Shown here: one piece after another, positions 1,384 to 10,047 of the stretch
Layout of the letters: every line of letters begins with the position of its first letter
Numbering within the stretch: the stretch's first letter is position 1
Assembly (NCBI GenBank): GCA_040218735.1
Contig: JAVJQW010000022.1
Coordinates: forward strand, 32,001 to 96,000
Reading direction: 5' to 3'
DNA from: Deltaproteobacteria bacterium
GTDB lineage: Bacteria; Myxococcota; Kuafuiibacteriia; Kuafuiibacteriales; Kuafuiibacteriaceae
DNA: 64,000 bases
Notes under the pieces: generated by a model
Database searches by the model: none
What the model was told of the DNA's origin: nothing
Seen by the model: only the letters and a program-made list of their open reading frames with translations
Position numbers and translations under genes: made by a program

Positions 1384-2370
1384 GTGCCCCACGATATGGG
1401 TGCGCCGGGGGTCCAAGACGCCACCATCGACTGGCTACCGCTCGGAAGCGCGGCCGTCATCGACTGGAAACAACTGGGTGCGTCCGCGAGCGTTCGCGGC
1501 GCGATGGCGTTCGGCGCCCGCATCGGCGGCGAACCGCTCCTCTTGAGGACGTGGACGAACGAGACCACGACCTACTACGAGTTCCACTTCCTCGCGTACG
1601 AGGACATGAGCGGAACGATCGTCGTCTCGACGGAGCGCCCCGAGGACACCCGCATCCGCCTCACCGCGACGATCGACGTCGAAGGGCGTATCGGCTACTC
1701 CGACATCAGCGAGTTCACGCAGCACGCGCGCACCGGACTGTACGGTTCGATCGTGCGCACGGTCGACATCAGCAACGGCGACCTCAAAACGGATCACCTC
1801 GACAGCCCCACGTCGGCGGAGGCCGAGATCTTCGAGTACGCGCCCGAGAGCGCGCTGCTGACGAACTGCGGCCAGTGGATCGGCGGCCTGCTCGACGCCG
1901 TCCGCGCACAGCTCCTCGACGGCGAAGTCGCCGAAGACGCGGGCCCCGCCGAACCCGCGCGCCCGCCGCGCTCGGCGCCGCCGCCGCCCGCGAAGAAACG
2001 CAGCAGCAAACGCGAGACCGTCGAGGCGCCGCCGGAGCGACCTACGCCAGCCCCGCCGAAGGAGCGCGCCCCGCCGAAGCGGGCGTCGATCGGGAACCTC
2101 TTCGCGACGACGAACTCGGGCGACTCCTGGGAGGTCACCGAGCAGGAGACCTTCCTCGGCCGCAGCAAGCAGTGCTCGATCGTCCTGAAGTCGCAGCGGG
2201 TGTCGCGCAAACACGCTTCGATCACGAAGGAAGACGACGGCTTCTACATCAACGACCTGGGCGCCGCGAACGGCATCTGGGCCGGCACCGAGAAGATCGA
2301 CCGCGAGCGCATCGTGGATGGGTCCGAGTACATCATCGGCGACGTCCTCGTGAGCTTCTCGCTGAGCTGA
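1384..2370 (+). CDS. FHA domain protein (unknown N-terminal domain, Pro-rich linker, C-terminal FHA); start may be ATG 1396
   Basis: FHA motifs FLGRSKQC, VSRKHASI, DLGAANGIW, IIGDV; 6 bp gap to the next gene. Confidence 0.85.
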   Translation: MPHDMGAPGVQDATIDWLPLGSAAVIDWKQLGASASVRGAMAFGARIGGEPLLLRTWTNETTTYYEFHFLAYEDMSGTIVVSTERPEDTRIRLTATIDVEGRIGYSDISEFTQHARTGLYGSIVRTVDISNGDLKTDHLDSPTSAEAEIFEYAPESALLTNCGQWIGGLLDAVRAQLLDGEVAEDAGPAEPARPPRSAPPPPAKKRSSKRETVEAPPERPTPAPPKERAPPKRASIGNLFATTNSGDSWEVTEQETFLGRSKQCSIVLKSQRVSRKHASITKEDDGFYINDLGAANGIWAGTEKIDRERIVDGSEYIIGDVLVSFSLS

Positions 2371-2376
2371 GCCACC

Positions 2377-3423
2377 ATGCCGGACGTCGACGCGAGCAAC
2401 GGTCCCGAGACTCGCGTCGATGATCCCGGACTGAACAGTGCGGTCGACGCGCTCTCGCGTCGACTCGAATCCGCCGGAGCCTCCGAGACCTCGTTGAAGC
2501 GAATCGCGGAGGCGCGCGATGCGCTCGTCGAAGCGGAACCCACGCCTGAGCTGATCGAAGATCTGTCGGCGGTGCTCACGGGCACCGCCAGCGCGGAGGC
2601 CTTTGCGGAGAACCTCGACGAGATGATCGCTTCCGCCGAGCAGATCGCCGAGGCGCCGATCGACAACAACCTGGACGACCACGCCTACGCGCAGCTGATG
2701 GTGAAGAAGGACGACGCGCGCCTCGACGTCGCGGCCGCGACAGCTTCCCATCAGCTCATCGCCGCGGCGAAGGACGCCGCCCGCACCGTCGCGCGGGCCG
2801 ACGCGCTGACCGAAGCCCCGAAGTGGTCGTCCGATACGCTCGAGTCAGAGCGCGACGAAACCATCGCGAAGTTCCGCACACACACCAAGGACGCAACCGG
2901 GCGCACCAAGTACGAACGGCTGAGCCAAGCCGTCGACGAAGCGTCCGACTTCATGTCGAAGCACCGCGCCGAGAAGATCCTCAGCGACTACGTGTCGCGC
3001 GAGTCCGACATCTTCGAGACCTTCGTCGACACGATGAGCGCCGTCAGCGTCTCGGACGAGCGCTGGGAGAAGTTCGCGAAGGGGTACGCGGAACACAGGC
3101 ACGACGGCCTGTCGTCCGACGCGCGCCGCACGGAGCTACGCAACGCCGCCGAACGGGGAGCGGCGGACGTCTTCCTGCTCTTCGCACGCGACGTCGTCCA
3201 TCATTACGCCACGAGCGAGGCCGCCGCGGACGCGCAGCAGCGCCGCCGCTACGGGGCCTGGTCCGGCGAGCACCGCGTGTATCGCGTCGACACCCTGTAC
3301 CGCCACAGCCCCGCGTACACCCGCGAGGTCTTCGAGGACATCGGATCGATCTGGTCCTACTGGCGACCGGCCGCACGCTGGGGCGACCTCGTCTTTCGGA
3401 TTGCGAGAACGGAGATTCGATAG
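2377..3423 (+). CDS. Hypothetical helical protein, paralogue A of a three-member family in this locus
   Basis: 348 aa; 55-aa block at 2557-2721 aligns without gaps to the CDSs at 3424 and 6240; its TAG abuts the next ATG. Confidence 0.8.
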   Translation: MPDVDASNGPETRVDDPGLNSAVDALSRRLESAGASETSLKRIAEARDALVEAEPTPELIEDLSAVLTGTASAEAFAENLDEMIASAEQIAEAPIDNNLDDHAYAQLMVKKDDARLDVAAATASHQLIAAAKDAARTVARADALTEAPKWSSDTLESERDETIAKFRTHTKDATGRTKYERLSQAVDEASDFMSKHRAEKILSDYVSRESDIFETFVDTMSAVSVSDERWEKFAKGYAEHRHDGLSSDARRTELRNAAERGAADVFLLFARDVVHHYATSEAAADAQQRRRYGAWSGEHRVYRVDTLYRHSPAYTREVFEDIGSIWSYWRPAARWGDLVFRIARTEIR

Positions 3424-4359
3424 ATGCCGCGCCCCGAAGACGAGCAACGGGCGCAGCTCGAGCAGAACGCCAAACTCGACGCGCACCAGGACACCGCCCT
3501 CCAACGCAAGACCGAACAGGCGACCGACCACCTCGGTCAGGAGCTCCGCGACACCCTCGACCGCATGCAGAAGTCCGGCGACCTCGGCGCCGAACGACGC
3601 GAGCAGCTACAGCAGGTCTTCGATCAGAACCTCGATGCCGTGGAGCGCGCCGCCGACGCCCTGAAGGACACGTCCGACGAGATTCGGCGCGACGTCGTGT
3701 CGGCGCTTCGAGGCCACAACGATCCCGCGGAGACGATCGACCGACTCGAAGAACGCGCCGCGGAGGCGCAGCGAACCTTGGACACGCAGGTGGACCGCGA
3801 CGCGTCGTTCCAAGAGCAAGCTCAACAGGACACGAACCACGCGGACGCACGCGCGGACCTCGAGGACATCGCGCGAGCGAAGGACCTGATCGAGGGCCTC
3901 CAGGCGGCGCGCGAGACACTCCAGTCCATCCAGGACGTGGAGCAGAAGGCCCAGGCGGGGCGAGAGGCCGAGGCGGGGCGAGAAGCCCAGCTGAAGGGCG
4001 AACGGCTGGAGGCGCGCGCCGCGGAGGCGCTCCGACAAAGGGGATTCGAAGTACGCCAGTGGAACCAGAAGCTCCGCGACACGGAGATCGATCTCATGAT
4101 GACGACGCCCGAAGGGATGTTCGGCGTGCTCGTCGGCGGTAATGCGAAGGGCCTCCTCTTCGACAAGATGAACGAGGAGAGCGTGGCCAAGTCGCTCGAT
4201 CGATTCCAGCGCGCGGATGACGTGCTCTCGGACCCCGACGGCCCGTTCCGCGGCGAGGCGGCGGGCGCGAAGATGGCCTTCGAGGCCAGCACGACGGACC
4301 CCCGCGTCGTCGAGCGTTTCCGAGAAGAGATCGGCCGCGACCGCGTCCTGCTGTTCTAG
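3424..4359 (+). CDS. Helical paralogue B with C-terminal YraN/PD-(D/E)xK-like fold (degenerate)
   Basis: Shared helical block at 3688-3852; C-terminal GERLEARAAEALRQRGFEVRQWNQKLRDTEIDL resembles UPF0102/YraN but ExK is missing. Confidence 0.7.
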   Translation: MPRPEDEQRAQLEQNAKLDAHQDTALQRKTEQATDHLGQELRDTLDRMQKSGDLGAERREQLQQVFDQNLDAVERAADALKDTSDEIRRDVVSALRGHNDPAETIDRLEERAAEAQRTLDTQVDRDASFQEQAQQDTNHADARADLEDIARAKDLIEGLQAARETLQSIQDVEQKAQAGREAEAGREAQLKGERLEARAAEALRQRGFEVRQWNQKLRDTEIDLMMTTPEGMFGVLVGGNAKGLLFDKMNEESVAKSLDRFQRADDVLSDPDGPFRGEAAGAKMAFEASTTDPRVVERFREEIGRDRVLLF

Positions 4360-4381
4360 GGACGGAGGCCCAAGACGTGGC

Positions 4382-6259
4382 CTAGACGGCCTCTTCCACG
4401 GGTGTCGAACGTCGCCGGCACCGCGCGAGGAACGGGTCGACGTCCGGAGCGACGAAGGACCCCTCCAGGTTCTTCGACGCCGGCTCGAGGAGCGCCTGCT
4501 CGACGCTCGTCGGCGTCCAACGTGAGAGCCGCTTCCCCTTCTTGAACTCGGCGGCGGACGGCGTCACCGGGAGGGTGCCGCGCCGAAAGATGAGCCAAGC
4601 CATGAGGTGACGGCGCGGCAGCTCGACGGTGCGAATCGGGGCGAACACACGCTCGACCGCGGTGGCGGTCGGGCTGGTGTCGACCACGGGGAGCCCGAGG
4701 AACTTCGCCATCGCTTGTTTGGCGGCCTCGTTGTCATCCTGCATTCCGAAGCTGGCGAGGACGCCTTTGAAGAGATCCTTCTGCTCCTGAGCGTCGAGGT
4801 CGACGGCGCGTTGGTTCCCCTGGACGACCTCCTCCAGACACTGCGCCGGGAGCGGCCGGGCCGCAGGGTCGCCGAGCGCAGCCAACCGAGCGAGCAACGC
4901 TTCACCATCGGCGCGCGCCTGCTCCGCCTTGAGCTGGATGCGATCGCTCATGGACAGCGCGGTTCCGTCGCCCAGGATCGACGCGACGCCACCCATGCCC
5001 GTCGGACGCATGCGTAGCCAGTTCGTCACGGCGTAGGACAGCTTTCCAGCGGTTAGCTCGTAGTAGGCGACCAGGTCCGTCCGGATGACGTGTTCGAGAT
5101 CGACGCGCGCCGTGTCGACACGTCGCGTGAACGTCTTCAGCGCCTCGACAGTCTCGTCCGAGACGATGCCCAGCCGGATGATACGCAGGTACCCCTCGAT
5201 CGCAGCGATGAGATCAAGCGGGTCGACGACCCCCGCCATGTACTCCGCGACCTGCTGCGCCGCGATCTTGGCGGCGAGGATCGCGTCGTGGCGACTGAGG
5301 TTGACGAACCAACCCCACTCGAACGCGTCCGCCCCCGCAATGAACGGCAGCAGGCGTTTGTCCCCCGAAGGCGCCGGGAGCATGTCGAGCGCGCCGGGCG
5401 GGAACTTCGACTCCTTCGCCCAGCGACGGAACCCACGCTGAACCCAGTCCGCCGCCGTCTCGGCGCCCGGCGACTTCTCCATCCAGTCCACGAACAACTG
5501 GACGCCAGCCCGCAGATCGTCCGGCGGCGTCGCGGCGACGCCCTGGATGATGTCGAGCGTCTTGGTGAGCGCGACCTCGTCCACGTAGCTCTTGGGCGGC
5601 TCCATCAGAACCGGCGGCACCGGGAGACACGGTGAGTGATCGAGACACTGACTCCGAAGGTTTGCGAACGGAACCACGTAAGCCTTGCCGCCGCTGCGTT
5701 TTGCTCCGCAGGTGTGGAGGAAGCTCACGACCGGGAGCAGACCATCGCCGTAGAAGCTCTGCTCGATCTCGAGCCCCATCGCCGCCGCTTCCGAGTCCTC
5801 CTTGTCCTTGTTCTGCTGCCGCACGTGGTCGCGGAGCCCCTGGTTCATGTACCCCTTGATGCTCTCGTGACGGTCGCCGATTTTCATCTGCGGCGCGGTC
5901 ATGAAGATGCACGTATGGCACGCGCTCTCTTCGCGGCTGCGTGCGAGTTTGTGGTGCTCACATCGCCCCGCCTGATTCTTCAGCGCCGCCACCAGGACCT
6001 TGTTGCCGTGGTTGCAGTACGGCGCGAACCTCGGCTCGTGCGGCCACTCCAGCAACTCACCGCGCACGAGCTCGAACAGCAGCTCGACCTCGCTCTCGAG
6101 CGCTTCGGTCTCGGCCTTACGAACCTCGCGGAGCGAGTCCATGATGCCCTTGCGGGGCATGCTTTGGTCGGTGCGTTTCCAGGTGTCGACGAAGGACACC
6201 TGCGGTCGATAGTGAAGACAGGTCTCACAGTTCGGCCGTTCAGAATTCGATCTCTCCAT
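4382..6259 (-). CDS. Hypothetical 625-aa protein with two tandem N-terminal CxxC...C...Nx4C domains
   Basis: CETC..PYC..KNQAGRC and CHTC..HTC..ANLRSQC; start overlaps the end of the upstream gene. Confidence 0.8.
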   Translation of the reverse strand: MERSNSERPNCETCLHYRPQVSFVDTWKRTDQSMPRKGIMDSLREVRKAETEALESEVELLFELVRGELLEWPHEPRFAPYCNHGNKVLVAALKNQAGRCEHHKLARSREESACHTCIFMTAPQMKIGDRHESIKGYMNQGLRDHVRQQNKDKEDSEAAAMGLEIEQSFYGDGLLPVVSFLHTCGAKRSGGKAYVVPFANLRSQCLDHSPCLPVPPVLMEPPKSYVDEVALTKTLDIIQGVAATPPDDLRAGVQLFVDWMEKSPGAETAADWVQRGFRRWAKESKFPPGALDMLPAPSGDKRLLPFIAGADAFEWGWFVNLSRHDAILAAKIAAQQVAEYMAGVVDPLDLIAAIEGYLRIIRLGIVSDETVEALKTFTRRVDTARVDLEHVIRTDLVAYYELTAGKLSYAVTNWLRMRPTGMGGVASILGDGTALSMSDRIQLKAEQARADGEALLARLAALGDPAARPLPAQCLEEVVQGNQRAVDLDAQEQKDLFKGVLASFGMQDDNEAAKQAMAKFLGLPVVDTSPTATAVERVFAPIRTVELPRRHLMAWLIFRRGTLPVTPSAAEFKKGKRLSRWTPTSVEQALLEPASKNLEGSFVAPDVDPFLARCRRRSTPVEEAV

Positions 6260-6902
6260 TCGTCAACTCCTGACTGATGCGCAGCTTGCGTTCCTCTTCG
6301 TCACGTAACGTCTCGGCGTCCTCGATGATGCGCTGAAGCTGGCGCAAGGCCTGAGTCGCGGACTCGGCGTTCTGCAGATCCCGGCTGATCTGCTCCATCT
6401 CCTTCGCGACATCACGCACCTGCTGCGCCATCTGTGTCGCTTCGCGAGCGGTCTCGTAGGCTTCGAGCTGCTCCCGCGCATCTTCGCGATTGGTCATCTC
6501 CTGCGCGTACTCGGCGTCCGTGATCGTGTTGTCGATCGGTGCCTCCGCCTGCTCCCGGAGCGCATCTGTGCGCTCGTCGAGCTGCTCCTGGAACGCGTCG
6601 AGATCCTGATCGCCGCGGAGCGCCTCTTCGAAGTCCTGGGCGACGTCGCGATCGAGGTCGCGCAGATCGAGGTCGTCCATCTTCTTGTCGAGATCATCGA
6701 GCTGCTCGTTCATTCGACGTTCGAGATCGCCGACTTGGTCGGCGTCGGTGTCGGGTCGCTGCTTCAGCGTGTCCGTCAGGTCCCGGAGGCTGTTGCGCGC
6801 GACGTCCTGCTTGTCGTCGAGTCCCTGCCTCAGCTCCCGTTCTTGACGTTGTGAGAGCTGCGCGGACTCGTCCGCCTGCACCCGGTCGTCGAGCTTCGGC
6901 AT
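6240..6902 (-). CDS. Helical paralogue C (stand-alone, acidic, coiled-coil-like)
   Basis: ATG 6902 lies 8 nt after a GAGGAG RBS (alternative GTG 6911 overlaps the ATPase stop); shared block at 6474-6638. Confidence 0.8.
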   Translation of the reverse strand: MPKLDDRVQADESAQLSQRQERELRQGLDDKQDVARNSLRDLTDTLKQRPDTDADQVGDLERRMNEQLDDLDKKMDDLDLRDLDRDVAQDFEEALRGDQDLDAFQEQLDERTDALREQAEAPIDNTITDAEYAQEMTNREDAREQLEAYETAREATQMAQQVRDVAKEMEQISRDLQNAESATQALRQLQRIIEDAETLRDEEERKLRISQELTNGEIEF

Positions 6903-6907
6903 GGCGG

Positions 6908-8386
6908 TCACTCCTCGACTTTCACGAACTGGATCTTCGCGCGCCCCATGCCATCGGTGAGCCCCATGAACACGAGGTGCCCCAGCTCGAGCCCGGTGAT
7001 GAACAGGTCACTGCTCAACGTCGTCCACCGATCCATCTTGCGGTCGGCAGAGACACTCGCTCCGTCCTGCCCGTGCGAGGCGCTGCGCCCCGACATGACG
7101 ACGTCGCTCTCCCCCATCATCTTCGCGGCGAGCTCGGCGCTATCCGGGTCGCCGAGGCGAAACATCAACTTACCCGCCGAGTTGGTCAGGATGCTCTTCC
7201 AGGTCTCGCGCACCCCGGAGTTCTCCAGCATCGGGATGCCCTGGGTCGCGATGAACGAGAGCACTTTGAACTGCCTAGCCTGACTGAAGAAGTAGCTGTC
7301 GCCGAAGCCCTCGCCCGGGAGATCACTCGCGACCTCGGCGTACTCGTCGATGACGAGAAATACGCGGCGCTCGTTGTCCGGATAGAGCTGCTTGCGATTC
7401 AGGGCGGCGCTGGCGAACAGCACCTTCACGAGCGTCGAGAGGAAGCGGGACACGGCGAGCCGGCTCTTCGGCACATCCAGGATCAACCAGCGCGCGTCGC
7501 GTAACACGTGATCGCCGACCGTGTCGGCGACGGTGTCGTCCGACAGGAAGTCGAGGTCCGGATCGAGGAACGGCGCGAGGATCTGACGAATGAACGTCCG
7601 CACCGTATGAGCGTTGTCGCTCTTTGCGGTCTCGTAGTCGGTCAGGCTGGAGATGATCGCATCACGCCGACGTGCGTCCGCTTCGCTGAGTTTCGCGTTC
7701 CGAAGGCGGTCGAGCTGCGTCTTCAGCATCGTTCGCTCCTCCGTCTTCTTCTTTCGATCGCTCCAGGTCCTCGTCGAGGTGAGGAACAGCGTCGCGAGCC
7801 GCCGAAGGGTCATCGGGCGTTCGAGGAGCTTGATCACCGCCAACCCATCGCCGAACAGGCGCTTCATCTCGTTGATCCAGTAGGGATCACTCGCGGAGAT
7901 TCCGGACGACTGCGCCGCGAGCGCGATCGCCGTTCCGAGATCGGTGGGCTCGAGGTGGCTCGCCAGCAGGTTCATCGTCGTGCCGGCGCCCGGGCCGATG
8001 ACGAGGCGTCGTTCGGGAGGGATGCTCGCCTTCACGTCGTGGACGAGCGTCTGCTTCGGATCCAGCAACAGGCCGCCCCACGGCATCGACCACTGCGCAT
8101 CGTTCGCGAGCTGGTCGAGGAGCTTGCGAAGGAAGTACGACTTGCCCGTCCCGGGCGCACCGAGCACGAGGTAGAGCTGCTGGAGGCCCGCCTTCTCGAG
8201 CGCGACCTGTCCGCCCTCCCTCGCGTACACGTACTCGAAGGATCGCGGGGGCGGTACACGACCAGAAGACACCCGACGCCAACTCGGGAGGTGTCGACCG
8301 CGCGGCACGGCTTCGGCGTTGGCCTCCTCGGTCCGAAGTTGTTTGGCCAGGGTCATCGCCGACCCGAGTACGAGTCGCTCGGTCAT
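6908..8386 (-). CDS. VirD4/TraD/TraG-like coupling-protein ATPase (FtsK-HerA superfamily), no obvious TM segment
   Basis: Walker A LVLGAPGTGKS, GGLLLDPK, Walker B FLVIDEY, SQARQFKVLSFIATQ, ILTNSAGKLMFRLGDPDSAELAAKMMG; start placed at an ATGA overlap with the upstream stop. Confidence 0.85.
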   Translation of the reverse strand: MTERLVLGSAMTLAKQLRTEEANAEAVPRGRHLPSWRRVSSGRVPPPRSFEYVYAREGGQVALEKAGLQQLYLVLGAPGTGKSYFLRKLLDQLANDAQWSMPWGGLLLDPKQTLVHDVKASIPPERRLVIGPGAGTTMNLLASHLEPTDLGTAIALAAQSSGISASDPYWINEMKRLFGDGLAVIKLLERPMTLRRLATLFLTSTRTWSDRKKKTEERTMLKTQLDRLRNAKLSEADARRRDAIISSLTDYETAKSDNAHTVRTFIRQILAPFLDPDLDFLSDDTVADTVGDHVLRDARWLILDVPKSRLAVSRFLSTLVKVLFASAALNRKQLYPDNERRVFLVIDEYAEVASDLPGEGFGDSYFFSQARQFKVLSFIATQGIPMLENSGVRETWKSILTNSAGKLMFRLGDPDSAELAAKMMGESDVVMSGRSASHGQDGASVSADRKMDRWTTLSSDLFITGLELGHLVFMGLTDGMGRAKIQFVKVEE

Positions 8387-8706
8387 CGGCGGTCCGAGAA
8401 GTCTTCGCAGCTGCCGTGGGGGTTCTTGGCGCTGCAGAGCACGAACAGATCGTGTGTCGCGCCCGAGTTCGGATCCAAGATGTCGCGCTTCGAGTCGTGG
8501 GCGCAGTAGGGGAACGCGATCGGCTCGAAGTCGAAGGGCTCCCCCGAGAGCATCCGCTGCTCTTCGTAGGTCGCGCGGGTCGCGAGCTCCTGCTGCCACT
8601 TGGCGCGAAGCTCGAGGACCTTCTGGGAAACGAGGCGGATCCCTTCGAGCGGGTTGGCCGGCTCGCCGAAGCGAATGTGGTGGCAGTTGGCGCAGTGCCG
8701 ATCCAT
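8383..8706 (-). CDS. 107-aa stand-alone CxxC...C...Nx4C domain protein
   Basis: GGAGG RBS, MDRHCANCHH...FEPIAFPYC...KNPHGSC; homologous to the repeats in 4382-6259. Confidence 0.8.
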   Translation of the reverse strand: MDRHCANCHHIRFGEPANPLEGIRLVSQKVLELRAKWQQELATRATYEEQRMLSGEPFDFEPIAFPYCAHDSKRDILDPNSGATHDLFVLCSAKNPHGSCEDFSDRR

Positions 8707-8717
8707 GAGCCCTCCGA

Positions 8718-9122
8718 TCAGGGGTGTAGCGGGTGGCCCCCGCTTCGTTCGGCTTCGATGCGTTTCTTCTCCTTGTCGAAGATGACGTACGCGGCGATTC
8801 CGAAGGGGATGCCGAACGGGATGAAGAAGAGGACGGCGACGATGCCCAATCCGATGACCAGGTGTTTCTTGTCCTTCGGGAGATCGTTCAGGCCGATCGA
8901 GGTCTTGGGGGGCGGGCGCTTCACGACCGGGTTGGGTGTCACGTTGGGCGCCCCGGTCGGGGTCGCGGTCGGCGCTCCGGTCCGCTCCGCAGGCTGCGTC
9001 GCGTCGGCGGTCGGCTCCGCCACCGGTTCGGGCGCGCCAGTGACCGGTAACCCCTCGTAGCCGCACGCCGCGCACGTGGACTGTGTTCCGGCGTGGGGCG
9101 ATCCACAGTTGGGACAGTTCAC
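8718..9122 (-). CDS. Zinc-ribbon, Pro/Thr linker, C-terminal TM protein (start uncertain; GTG 9122 or TTG 9158)
   Basis: CPNCG...CAACG, then hydrophobic LVIGLGIVAVLFFIPFGIPFGIAAYVIF. Confidence 0.75.
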   Translation of the reverse strand: MNCPNCGSPHAGTQSTCAACGYEGLPVTGAPEPVAEPTADATQPAERTGAPTATPTGAPNVTPNPVVKRPPPKTSIGLNDLPKDKKHLVIGLGIVAVLFFIPFGIPFGIAAYVIFDKEKKRIEAERSGGHPLHP

Positions 9123-9199
9123 TCCCGAGGTGTAGCCGAGAGCCGTAGGCGCTTGCAAGGCCGCGCATCGGGGGATTTACGCAACGATCCCCAGGACAC

Positions 9200-9207
9200 G
9201 CCGATAC
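9200..9207 (+). promoter_or_regulatory. Possible sigma28/FliA-like -10 element
   Basis: GCCGATAC versus consensus GCCGATAA, 11 nt before ATG 9219; -35 match is weak. Confidence 0.25.
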
Positions 9208-9507: not shown

Positions 9508-10047
9508 GTGAACCCGGCCGACGTCCACCCCCGCGTCCAGGACGCCGTTCGCGCCTGGGGCGCCGCACCCGACATCGAAGCCGCCGCGAAGCAGCTCGAA
9601 GAACACCGTCGTGCGCTCCCGCCCGAGCTCGTCGCGCAGCTCGTGGACGAGGTCGCCGAGATCTCCGCCGAGATGATGATCGACCTCCTCACCGAGGAAC
9701 GTGGCGTCGACGTCTCCGCGGAGACAGTGGAGCTCGGCGGCGTCGAGCTCCTCCCTAGGCAGGCCGCGCGGCTCAGCGCTTGGCTCGAAGATCAGAAGCG
9801 CACCGCCGAGGCGCTCGGCCTCGACGGCGACGCGTGGATCCGACAGATGGAGCGTGGGTTCGATCGTTACGTCGCGCGTGAGCGCGGGGACGCAGCGACC
9901 GAGGTCGCGGAAGCCACGGACAAAGCGCACCAGCTGTTGGGTGGCGAGCGCGGAGCCTTCGAGCCCCGCCCGGCGCCCGGCGAGAGCGCCAAGGCCGGCC
10001 TCGCGGGGATGCTCGCGGCGCGCGACTTCGCGAAGAAGAAGAGTTAG
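9508..10047 (+). CDS. Hypothetical protein, putative partner of 9219-9494
   Basis: 179 aa, 13 bp after the previous stop; N-terminus resembles 51851-52384. Confidence 0.75.
   Translation: MNPADVHPRVQDAVRAWGAAPDIEAAAKQLEEHRRALPPELVAQLVDEVAEISAEMMIDLLTEERGVDVSAETVELGGVELLPRQAARLSAWLEDQKRTAEALGLDGDAWIRQMERGFDRYVARERGDAATEVAEATDKAHQLLGGERGAFEPRPAPGESAKAGLAGMLAARDFAKKKS

Follow-up and report, generated by a model that had tools for sequence, protein, structure and literature searches.

We begin by considering the coupling-type ATPases, such as TrwB of R388, VirD4 and TraD. These motors are understood only as the gatekeepers of type IV secretion, and many of their homologues, found away from any secretion genes, lack a known role (PMC12102498). 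The window, as we call the 64,000-nucleotide stretch of contig JAVJQW010000022.1 (GenBank assembly GCA_040218735.1, positions 32,001 to 96,000, from a Deltaproteobacteria bacterium of the Myxococcota), holds a locus that supplies one such orphan motor with partners that are defined and can be tested. Between about positions 2377 and 9168 lie the genes for a soluble ATPase related to the coupling proteins, a small protein with a single cysteine domain (Cys1), a larger protein with two copies of that domain (the tandem-Cys protein), three helical paralogues (helA, helB and helC) and a Zn-ribbon protein. The conserved order (single Cys domain, soluble ATPase, variable protein, with a tandem-Cys protein besides) recurs in other lineages. 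The module is built around a new domain and matches no described system, and its most probable role lies in biological conflict of some kind. The original prediction had joined eight open reading frames (ORFs), from an FHA gene to the Zn-ribbon gene, into a candidate export or conflict system; the gene unit described here differs from it, since the island of about 2377-9168 leaves the FHA gene outside.

The ATPase (6908-8389, minus strand, 493 amino acids from the start MTERL that is used here; the longest ORF extends to 8599) falls in the same clade as the type IV coupling proteins, with two Pfam families above their cut-offs: PF10412 (TrwB_AAD_bind, 51.6 bits against a cut-off of 20.5, E = 8.9e-14) and PF12696 (TraG-D_C, 31.4 bits against 22, E = 2e-7). 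A search of 5.8 billion protein clusters finds only 22 relatives, whose identities range over 45-98% (45-66% across lineages); their labels include one Nitrospira sp. and one Deltaproteobacteria, the latter in the 90% cluster of the window ATPase itself. The Walker A (GAPGTGKS) and Walker B (DEY) motifs are invariant in the alignment, the first being present in all 22 homologues and the second in 21, with a 304-residue fragment as the exception. The coupling proteins carry an N-terminal membrane anchor, whereas this family does not: by a hydropathy measure, admittedly a crude one, none of the 22 homologues has a hydrophobic segment (the top 19-residue window reaches at most 1.67), and Walker A begins at about residue 64-98, behind a polar N-terminus. 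The soluble VirD4-like ATPase of the original prediction is thus borne out. The family is also far from the characterised members: no PDB chain is matched by its profile at E<=0.01, and neither the 72,556 plasmids (even at E = 1e-5) nor the 50,697 phages searched by tblastn with the ATPase contain a match. Scans with the ATPase alignment gave 11 pattern matches on genome contigs and 31 on viral contigs, none of which was confirmed.

Unlike the type IV coupling proteins, the ATPase is always paired with a Cys-domain protein. The gene for Cys1 (8383-8706, minus strand, 107 amino acids, four cysteines arranged as CxxC, a helical hairpin, C and C) overlaps the ATPase start by 7 nt in the window, and it lies directly 5' of the ATPase gene in all seven distinct loci (the window, L002, L003, L004, which is the same as L005, L006, L133 and L134). 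In three further proteins of 636 amino acids each (P0008, P0158 and P0159), Cys1 is fused to the N-terminus of the ATPase. The tandem-Cys gene is present in each of the five loci that reach far enough. A metagenome scan with the ATPase returned five loci, two of them identical, with Cys1 preceding the ATPase in all of them; in L002 and L004/L005 the ATPase is followed by a protein of about 500 amino acids and then by the tandem-Cys protein. Species-representative genomes were scanned with a pattern of the cysteine motif, a regular expression that recovers about 32 of the 107 family members, and gave 85 matches, 83 of them due to chance and two true by hidden Markov model. The true ones come from metagenome-assembled genomes of a Nannocystaceae (L133) and a Gemmatimonadaceae (L134, genome G402). 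Both were found through the Cys module alone, and yet in both Cys1 and an ATPase homologue (33-35% identity) adjoin the tandem-Cys gene, with a large unrelated protein next, so that the linkage is recovered independently. The minus-strand genes can thus be taken as a real, conserved and previously undescribed module that recurs in other lineages.

The original prediction had staked itself on the co-occurrence of its genes in other genomes. The core does co-occur; the FHA gene does not do so with the module, and tblastn with the FHA protein, helA and helB finds nothing in L002-L006, L048 or L088. The module is distributed very sporadically. Of 401 genomes in the phylum, only that of the window (G000) has a true match to the Cys module; 20 others matched the tandem-Cys model at positions of about 280-350 only, outside the Cys module, and are not counted. 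The ATPase is found in one of 301 genomes of the phylum to which G402 belongs, and searches with the ATPase find nothing of the module on plasmids, in phages or in viral contigs.

Since the ATPase family is that of the coupling proteins, the locus might be what is left of a conjugative or other mobile element, or an accessory of one, with the other genes of that element located elsewhere. The same genome does hold a canonical TrwB-type gene at the start of contig C47 (705-1853, E = 1e-107) and a fragment on contig C30 (4-198), and the GC content at third codon positions (GC3) is lower in the island, 0.80-0.87, than in its flanks, 0.93-0.95. Against a remnant stand the intact motifs of the ATPase, which forms a conserved family of its own that is always found with Cys1. 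The loci seen show no relaxase-like or type IV secretion system (T4SS) genes: the Pfam scans of ORFs (window 1-18.6 kb, L004, L133 and L134) contain no family of either kind, no explicit relaxase search having been made, and the eight proteins of the window, the only ones scanned for relaxase and WXG100 families, have no Pfam match to them at E<=0.1. The empty plasmid search also speaks against a remnant, as does the island itself, at which there is no tRNA, no flanking repeat and, among the neighbours scanned, no integrase-like match. We regard this explanation as very improbable.

In the tandem-Cys protein (4382-6259, minus strand, 625 amino acids), the two Cys-domain copies occupy 5585-6259. 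Its C-terminal domain is about 400 residues long, is all-helical and has generic helical matches only. Pairwise, Cys1 and the tandem-Cys protein are only weakly similar (E = 0.015), but a profile-profile comparison with hhalign aligns Cys1 with the first half of the tandem module at a probability of 97.1% (E = 5.8e-11), and the two are homologous. The invariant cysteines of the tandem module are C11, C14, C82 and C100 in one copy and C114, C117, C184 and C205 in the other, and from this CxxC...C...C pattern the domain probably binds zinc. A profile search with the tandem-Cys protein finds 128 representatives at E<=1e-3 among 1.84 billion proteins (16 at E<=1e-30), about 100 of which match only the tandem module of about 205 residues and carry varied C-terminal extensions. 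Across 102 family members, the only Pfam matches are Zn-ribbons (in 11) and scattered repeats, the module itself having none; Cys1 has no match in Pfam, NCBIfam, PADLOC or PHROG, and the PHROGs search as a whole gave nothing meaningful.

The AlphaFold model of residues 1-225, built on an alignment of 86 sequences, is confident (mean predicted local distance difference test, pLDDT, 93.3) and has no match in the PDB (best Foldseek E = 1.2, best VIA Z = 3.3) or in BFVD (best E = 3.0); in the ESM Atlas the best score is 0.86, to unnamed clusters, which is not informative. The model of the full protein is less certain (pLDDT 61, with a poor N-terminus) and gives nothing in the PDB by Foldseek at E<=0.001 and generic helical bundles in a wide VIA search (best Z = 6.1). 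The new Cys domain that had been proposed from the window accordingly stands, with no Pfam family and no structural match. Gene linkage, the natural fusion and the lack of an anchor in the ATPase together suggest Cys1 as a substitute for the membrane domain of the coupling proteins, and the tandem-Cys protein, which is built from the same module, as a scaffold or sensor. A prediction of the complex of ATPase and Cys1 scored 0.00 and gives no verdict; it counts neither for nor against binding.

The slot directly 3' of the ATPase gene is the variable part of the module. In the window it is occupied by helC (6240-6911, minus strand, 223 amino acids), a very acidic coiled coil with 28% D+E; in L002, L004, L133 and L134 it holds unrelated proteins of 499-625 amino acids. 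Those of L002 and L004 have a common N-terminal region (E = 1.7e-12) and a common C-terminal tail (6e-6) around a divergent middle. The middle of the L004 protein is a Tae3-like CHAP amidase (PDB accession code: 4hz9_A, E = 4.5e-7; Atlas features agree), and by our own count of the alignment its Cys and His stand at C23 and H81 of 4hz9_A. The structure 4HZ9 is that of Tae3, a type VI effector with C23/H81 as its catalytic pair (PMC11796386). The L133 slot protein has a long glycine-rich hydrophobic segment, and that of L134 is a 569-residue acidic coiled coil with a match to WXG100_2 below the cut-off (E = 3.7e-4, 20.9 bits against 27). In the window, L002 and L004 no ORF, and hence no immunity gene, separates the cargo gene from the conserved gene that comes next: the tandem-Cys gene overlaps or abuts the slot gene in all three, and helB precedes the convergent gap of 22 bp.

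A slot of this kind could be explained by toxin recruitment for export, the idea of the original prediction and the main rival to the reading that we favour. The ATPase would recognise helical, polymorphic-toxin-like substrates by a conserved terminal region, the zinc-module proteins would serve as an adaptor platform, and the cargo would be passed on to a translocation route and so reach competitors. The known role of the TrwB/VirD4/TraD clade is substrate recruitment, and there is a precedent in the VirD4 of Xanthomonas, which recognises antibacterial effectors via their conserved C-terminal domain (PMC8740702). Toxin-like proteins with a conserved terminal region may be a logic common to that VirD4/X-Tfe system and to the module, as the conserved ends and variable middles of the L002 and L004 cargo would have it, one middle being an amidase with aligned catalytic residues. 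The hydrophobic segment of the L133 cargo, the weak WXG100_2 match of the L134 coiled coil, the RHS protein that adjoins the module in L004 and the hydrophobic segment of the Zn-ribbon protein in the window all point the same way.

Other observations speak against export. Besides the ATPase family, in which no membrane segment is found, no channel, anchor, membrane protein or signal peptide is conserved across the loci, and no cargo gene is followed by a gene of immunity type. The genome of the window (11.6 Mb, 96.5% complete) has no match to VirB4 (PF03135) or to TssC (PF05943), and the plasmids searched hold nothing. Nitrospira, Gemmatimonadaceae and Nannocystaceae, the recorded host lineages, are two-membrane bacteria, in which export would call for a large envelope-spanning machine. 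We consider export somewhat unlikely on this balance.

In the window, the variable slot is linked to two further genes on the opposite strand, helA (2377-3423, plus strand, with an orphan C-terminal domain of about 170 amino acids) and helB (3424-4359, plus strand). The match between helA and helC (BLASTP E = 3e-11) covers helA residues 61-179, with the common motif AEAPIDN..D..YAQ.M, and helB matches helC at E = 2e-4. In a six-frame search of the 11.6-Mb genome, helC is the only other match of helA and of the helical part of helB. The earlier claim that helical paralogues occur on both strands and tie the operons together is thus supported, the homology linking helA and helB to the minus-strand operon. 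In the search of 5.8 billion clusters, helA matched only itself.

The tail of helB (residues 169-311, positions 3928-4359) had been called nuclease-like. It weakly resembles YraN, a PD-(D/E)xK-like family, with matches to the NCBIfam models at E = 1.8e-4 to 0.04; these reach 14-22 bits against cut-offs of 69-124, and the match to UPF0102 (17.6 bits against a cut-off of 23.6) likewise stays below the family level. A genuine YraN ORF in genome G270 matches the tail at E = 1.9e-4 in a six-frame search. Copies of the tail at 47-52% identity stand on an unrelated 459-residue protein in G000 and on its orthologue in G001, a genome of the same genus; by our own reading of the sequences, these copies keep E-A-K where helB has N-A-K. 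The 459-residue protein is encoded at 1498-2877 of locus L040 (contig C9 of G000) and at 520-1899 of locus L136 (G001), and its N-terminal region is unrelated to helB.

Several described systems resemble the module in part. The DotL complex of Legionella consists of a coupling-type ATPase, the zinc protein DotN and the small acidic adaptors IcmS and IcmW. The theme is alike, namely a coupling-type ATPase with a small Cys-rich zinc protein, small acidic proteins and cargo. However, the Dot/Icm channel is not present here and the ATPase is soluble; the zinc partner is not recognisably of the DotN fold either, since Z = 3.3 is the best that the tandem-Cys model reaches against PDB chains.

The type VIIb secretion system, which combines the EssC ATPase with LXG toxins and small helical partners, is likewise alike in its small helical paralogues, its helical proteins with variable toxin-like tails and the broad superfamily of its ATPase. 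The ATPase of the window differs in being single-domain and anchorless, with FtsK_SpoIIIE (PF01580) below its cut-off at E = 0.048 and EccCb at 14.8 bits against 346.55, and none of helA, helB and helC has an LXG or WXG100 match at E<=0.1. The original prediction had drawn an analogy to EssC from the FHA gene in addition; it is dropped, because the FHA protein is not a component of the module, as described below.

Similar again are the FtsK-HerA defence modules (MAD7/MAD8, Sir2-HerA and HerA-DUF4297), in which a soluble P-loop motor likewise stands beside a changeable toxic effector. For MADS, MAD7/MAD8 is reported to be an ATPase-nuclease module that defence requires (PMC13662399). The best PADLOC match of the ATPase is indeed mad8 (E = 7e-12, profile positions 27-270 of 314), but the other mad genes are absent among the seven other proteins, all of which lack a PADLOC match below E = 1e-3. 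The ATPase falls short of the HerA family itself (DUF87 at 17.5 bits, with the cut-off at 23.2), the eight proteins have neither a Sir2 nor a DUF4297 match, and neither MADS nor the HerA modules have a counterpart to the Cys-module partners.

Polymorphic toxins combine a conserved region with a swappable toxin domain, an arrangement that is found in the related loci L002 and L004 only, and a cognate immunity gene downstream, in place of which the conserved tandem-Cys gene comes next. Kaur et al. 2020 and 2021 refer to FtsK ATPase domains as effector domains only. For Patescibacteria, a survey counts 5,713 VirD4 homologues spread over 2,918 genomes and finds virB4 nearby for only 148 (PMC12102498); none of these orphan VirD4-like ATPases is among the 22 relatives of the ATPase studied here. 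A literature search, supplements aside, found no description of the module. It matches neither MADS, a HerA pair, type VII secretion nor a classical polymorphic-toxin locus, in agreement with the earlier view that this is not a named system.

We turn to the FHA gene (1384-2370, plus strand; Pfam FHA at residues 257-317, the C-terminus, E = 9.3e-14), which had been counted as a component. The gene upstream of it encodes a glycosyltransferase of the PEP-CTERM/XrtA type (TIGR04063, E = 6e-131) with orthologues in six relatives at 63-74% identity, and in the loci of three of the six (G011, G006 and G004) a full-length FHA orthologue at 50-67% identity follows the glycosyltransferase directly. The ATPase is found in none of 40 relatives, these three included. 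Since the FHA gene follows the glycosyltransferase in relatives that have no ATPase, it belongs to the host backbone and the claim of membership falls; it is probably an adjacent gene outside the module, which may provide helA and helB, starting 6 bp downstream, with read-through transcription. The glycosyltransferase and FHA genes (75-2370 in the window; L157, L158 and L159) form a conserved pair in the three family-level relatives, which suggests that the FHA protein has its place in the regulation of exopolysaccharide and not in the island.

Beyond the opposite edge, G001, of the same genus, has the genes for EF-G, an unnamed protein, a DUF4842 protein and a small protein (window 9508-10047) in the order of the window, and its nucleotide similarity reaches to about window position 9201, where the G001 contig ends. 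With the FHA gene as backbone on one side and the genes shared with G001 on the other, the island is placed at about 2377-9168.

Such surroundings also allow for a role that has nothing to do with conflict. The ATPase could be a motor that handles DNA or protein, for instance in chromosome or nucleoid organisation, or in envelope or exopolysaccharide regulation together with the FHA gene. TrwB-type ATPases are DNA-dependent motors, zinc modules often bind nucleic acid, neither helC nor the L134 protein has an enzymatic domain, both being plain acidic coiled coils, and the genes around the island, which starts 6 bp after the FHA gene, are exopolysaccharide and housekeeping genes. A housekeeping function of this kind agrees poorly with an extremely sporadic distribution and atypical codon usage, with an FHA gene that is conserved where the module is missing, with toxin-type domains in the variable slot of other loci, and with the lack of any conserved housekeeping partner. 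We find it improbable; like the mobile remnant, it fits the data less well than a conflict module or export does.

Our tentative preference is for a new conflict module that is controlled by the ATPase and probably acts inside the cell, in the manner of defence or abortive infection. In this proposal, the horizontally acquired island would have as its core the soluble and catalytically intact TrwB/VirD4-like ATPase, with Cys1 docking on its N-terminus in place of the membrane anchor of the coupling proteins. The tandem-Cys protein, with two copies of the module and a large helical domain, would be the scaffold or sensor, and the fast-changing gene directly after the ATPase would encode the "cargo". 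In the window the cargo would be the three helical paralogues, helC as the bare acidic coiled coil and helA and helB with extra C-terminal domains. We infer that the ATPase and the proteins of the putative zinc module form a sensor-motor complex in the cytoplasm; it would be set off by a cue, for example phage infection or invading DNA, and ATP would then be used to release, unfold or activate the helical effectors, which would damage the cell or the invader. In its logic such a system would resemble the HerA- and MAD8-type modules.

Four features would suit a tightly controlled cytoplasmic effector system that serves defence or abortive infection: an intact motor ATPase with a changeable, toxin-like gene right behind it, the lack of an immunity gene, the patchy spread together with the atypical codon usage, and some of the neighbours, namely HigB and RHS in L004, vWA and PP2C in L134 and a weakly Lit-like metalloprotease in L133. 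A bolder reading sees here a new class of membrane-independent coupling-type motor: a soluble VirD4-like ATPase may have swapped its anchor for a novel zinc module and, with a scaffold made of that module, may load, unfold or arm interchangeable toxin-like helical proteins, a possibility that we entertain while leaning against it.

A number of points weigh against this preferred reading. The Tae3-like amidase would fit export better than an intracellular effector, because amidases of this kind normally act on peptidoglycan outside the cytoplasm. Toxicity of the cargo in the window is unsupported, the helB tail being weakly YraN-like with N in the place of an acidic residue and the helA tail being an orphan. 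The slot proteins of the distant loci have no detectable homology to helA, helB or helC, so that the equivalence of cargo genes across distant loci is positional only. The toxin-antitoxin, RHS and phosphosignalling neighbours occur in one locus each, and the flanks of the window are housekeeping or exopolysaccharide genes and not a defence island. Apart from the partial mad8, PADLOC gives no convincing match in the eight proteins or in ten neighbour proteins. The ATPase homologue of L134 is split over two reading frames (11049-12606 of contig C1 in G402) by a frameshift or an assembly error, so this copy may be decaying or mis-assembled. What is said of the loci as a group comes from seven that were inspected.

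As a defence system, the module would add a new architecture as well as a new fold for a sensor or adaptor; as a toxin exporter, it would indicate that two-membrane bacteria have a delivery route that has gone unrecognised. In both cases the motor comes with a new cysteine module that has a confidently predicted fold and no structural relative, with a natural Cys1-ATPase fusion that predicts where this module would bind, by docking at the N-terminus, and with a cargo slot that swaps toxin-like domains. The core of four genes is small enough for heterologous tests. Should the idea of a motor with an exchanged anchor be true, the combination of such an ATPase and Cys-rich zinc proteins would amount to a general machine that has escaped description, and the thousands of orphan coupling-protein homologues in Patescibacteria would find an explanation in it as well; were those homologues related to the parts described here, the theme would be much broader than this island.

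The layout of the genes is as had been described from the window, which is GC-rich (about 0.63-0.72). All eight ORFs are present with a coding-type GC3 of 0.80-0.91, and they form two tight operons that converge on a gap of 22 bp (4360-4381). Within each strand the genes abut or overlap, with spacings of 6, 0, -20, -4, -7 and +11 nt. A scan for promoters and terminators stayed at chance level. The first gene of the minus-strand operon encodes the Zn-ribbon protein (8718-9158, minus strand), whose end had been put at 9122, an in-frame alternative GTG start. Its match to Zn_ribbon_3 is below the cut-off (E = 6.1e-4), and it has one C-terminal hydrophobic, probably transmembrane, segment (top 19-residue hydropathy window 2.52, at residue 100), which is seen only in the window locus. 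Zn-ribbons do recur with the module, as a separate gene for a 139-residue protein in L004 and as a DZR domain fused to the tandem-Cys protein of L133 (E = 1.2e-8). Between the island and the DUF4842 gene, the small plus-strand ORF at 9508-10047 has no Pfam match and is 61% identical over 174 amino acids to its counterpart in G001.

The other loci have neighbours of their own. Just upstream of the module in L134 (5309-6889) are genes for a vWA protein and a PP2C phosphatase (E = 3.9e-47); an ORF at 7163-8503 of this locus looked like a kinase by eye, a reading that has no Pfam or PADLOC support and is not used. Downstream of the module in L133 (6582-8306) lies a gene for a 574-residue HExxH protein that is weakly Lit-like (E = 4.2e-4), with peptidase M48 at E = 0.007. 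The region directly upstream of the module in L004 (2677-9131) holds genes for a small multi-pass membrane protein, for the toxin HigB (E = 4.5e-31), beside which lies a small ORF lacking a Pfam match, and for an RHS/YD-repeat protein of 1600 residues whose N-terminus resembles a signal peptide. After the tandem-Cys gene of L004 (14978-16595) come the 139-residue Zn-ribbon protein and a 391-residue helical protein; neither has a significant Pfam match, and the helical protein ends in CxxCxGxG repeats that look DnaJ-like by eye.

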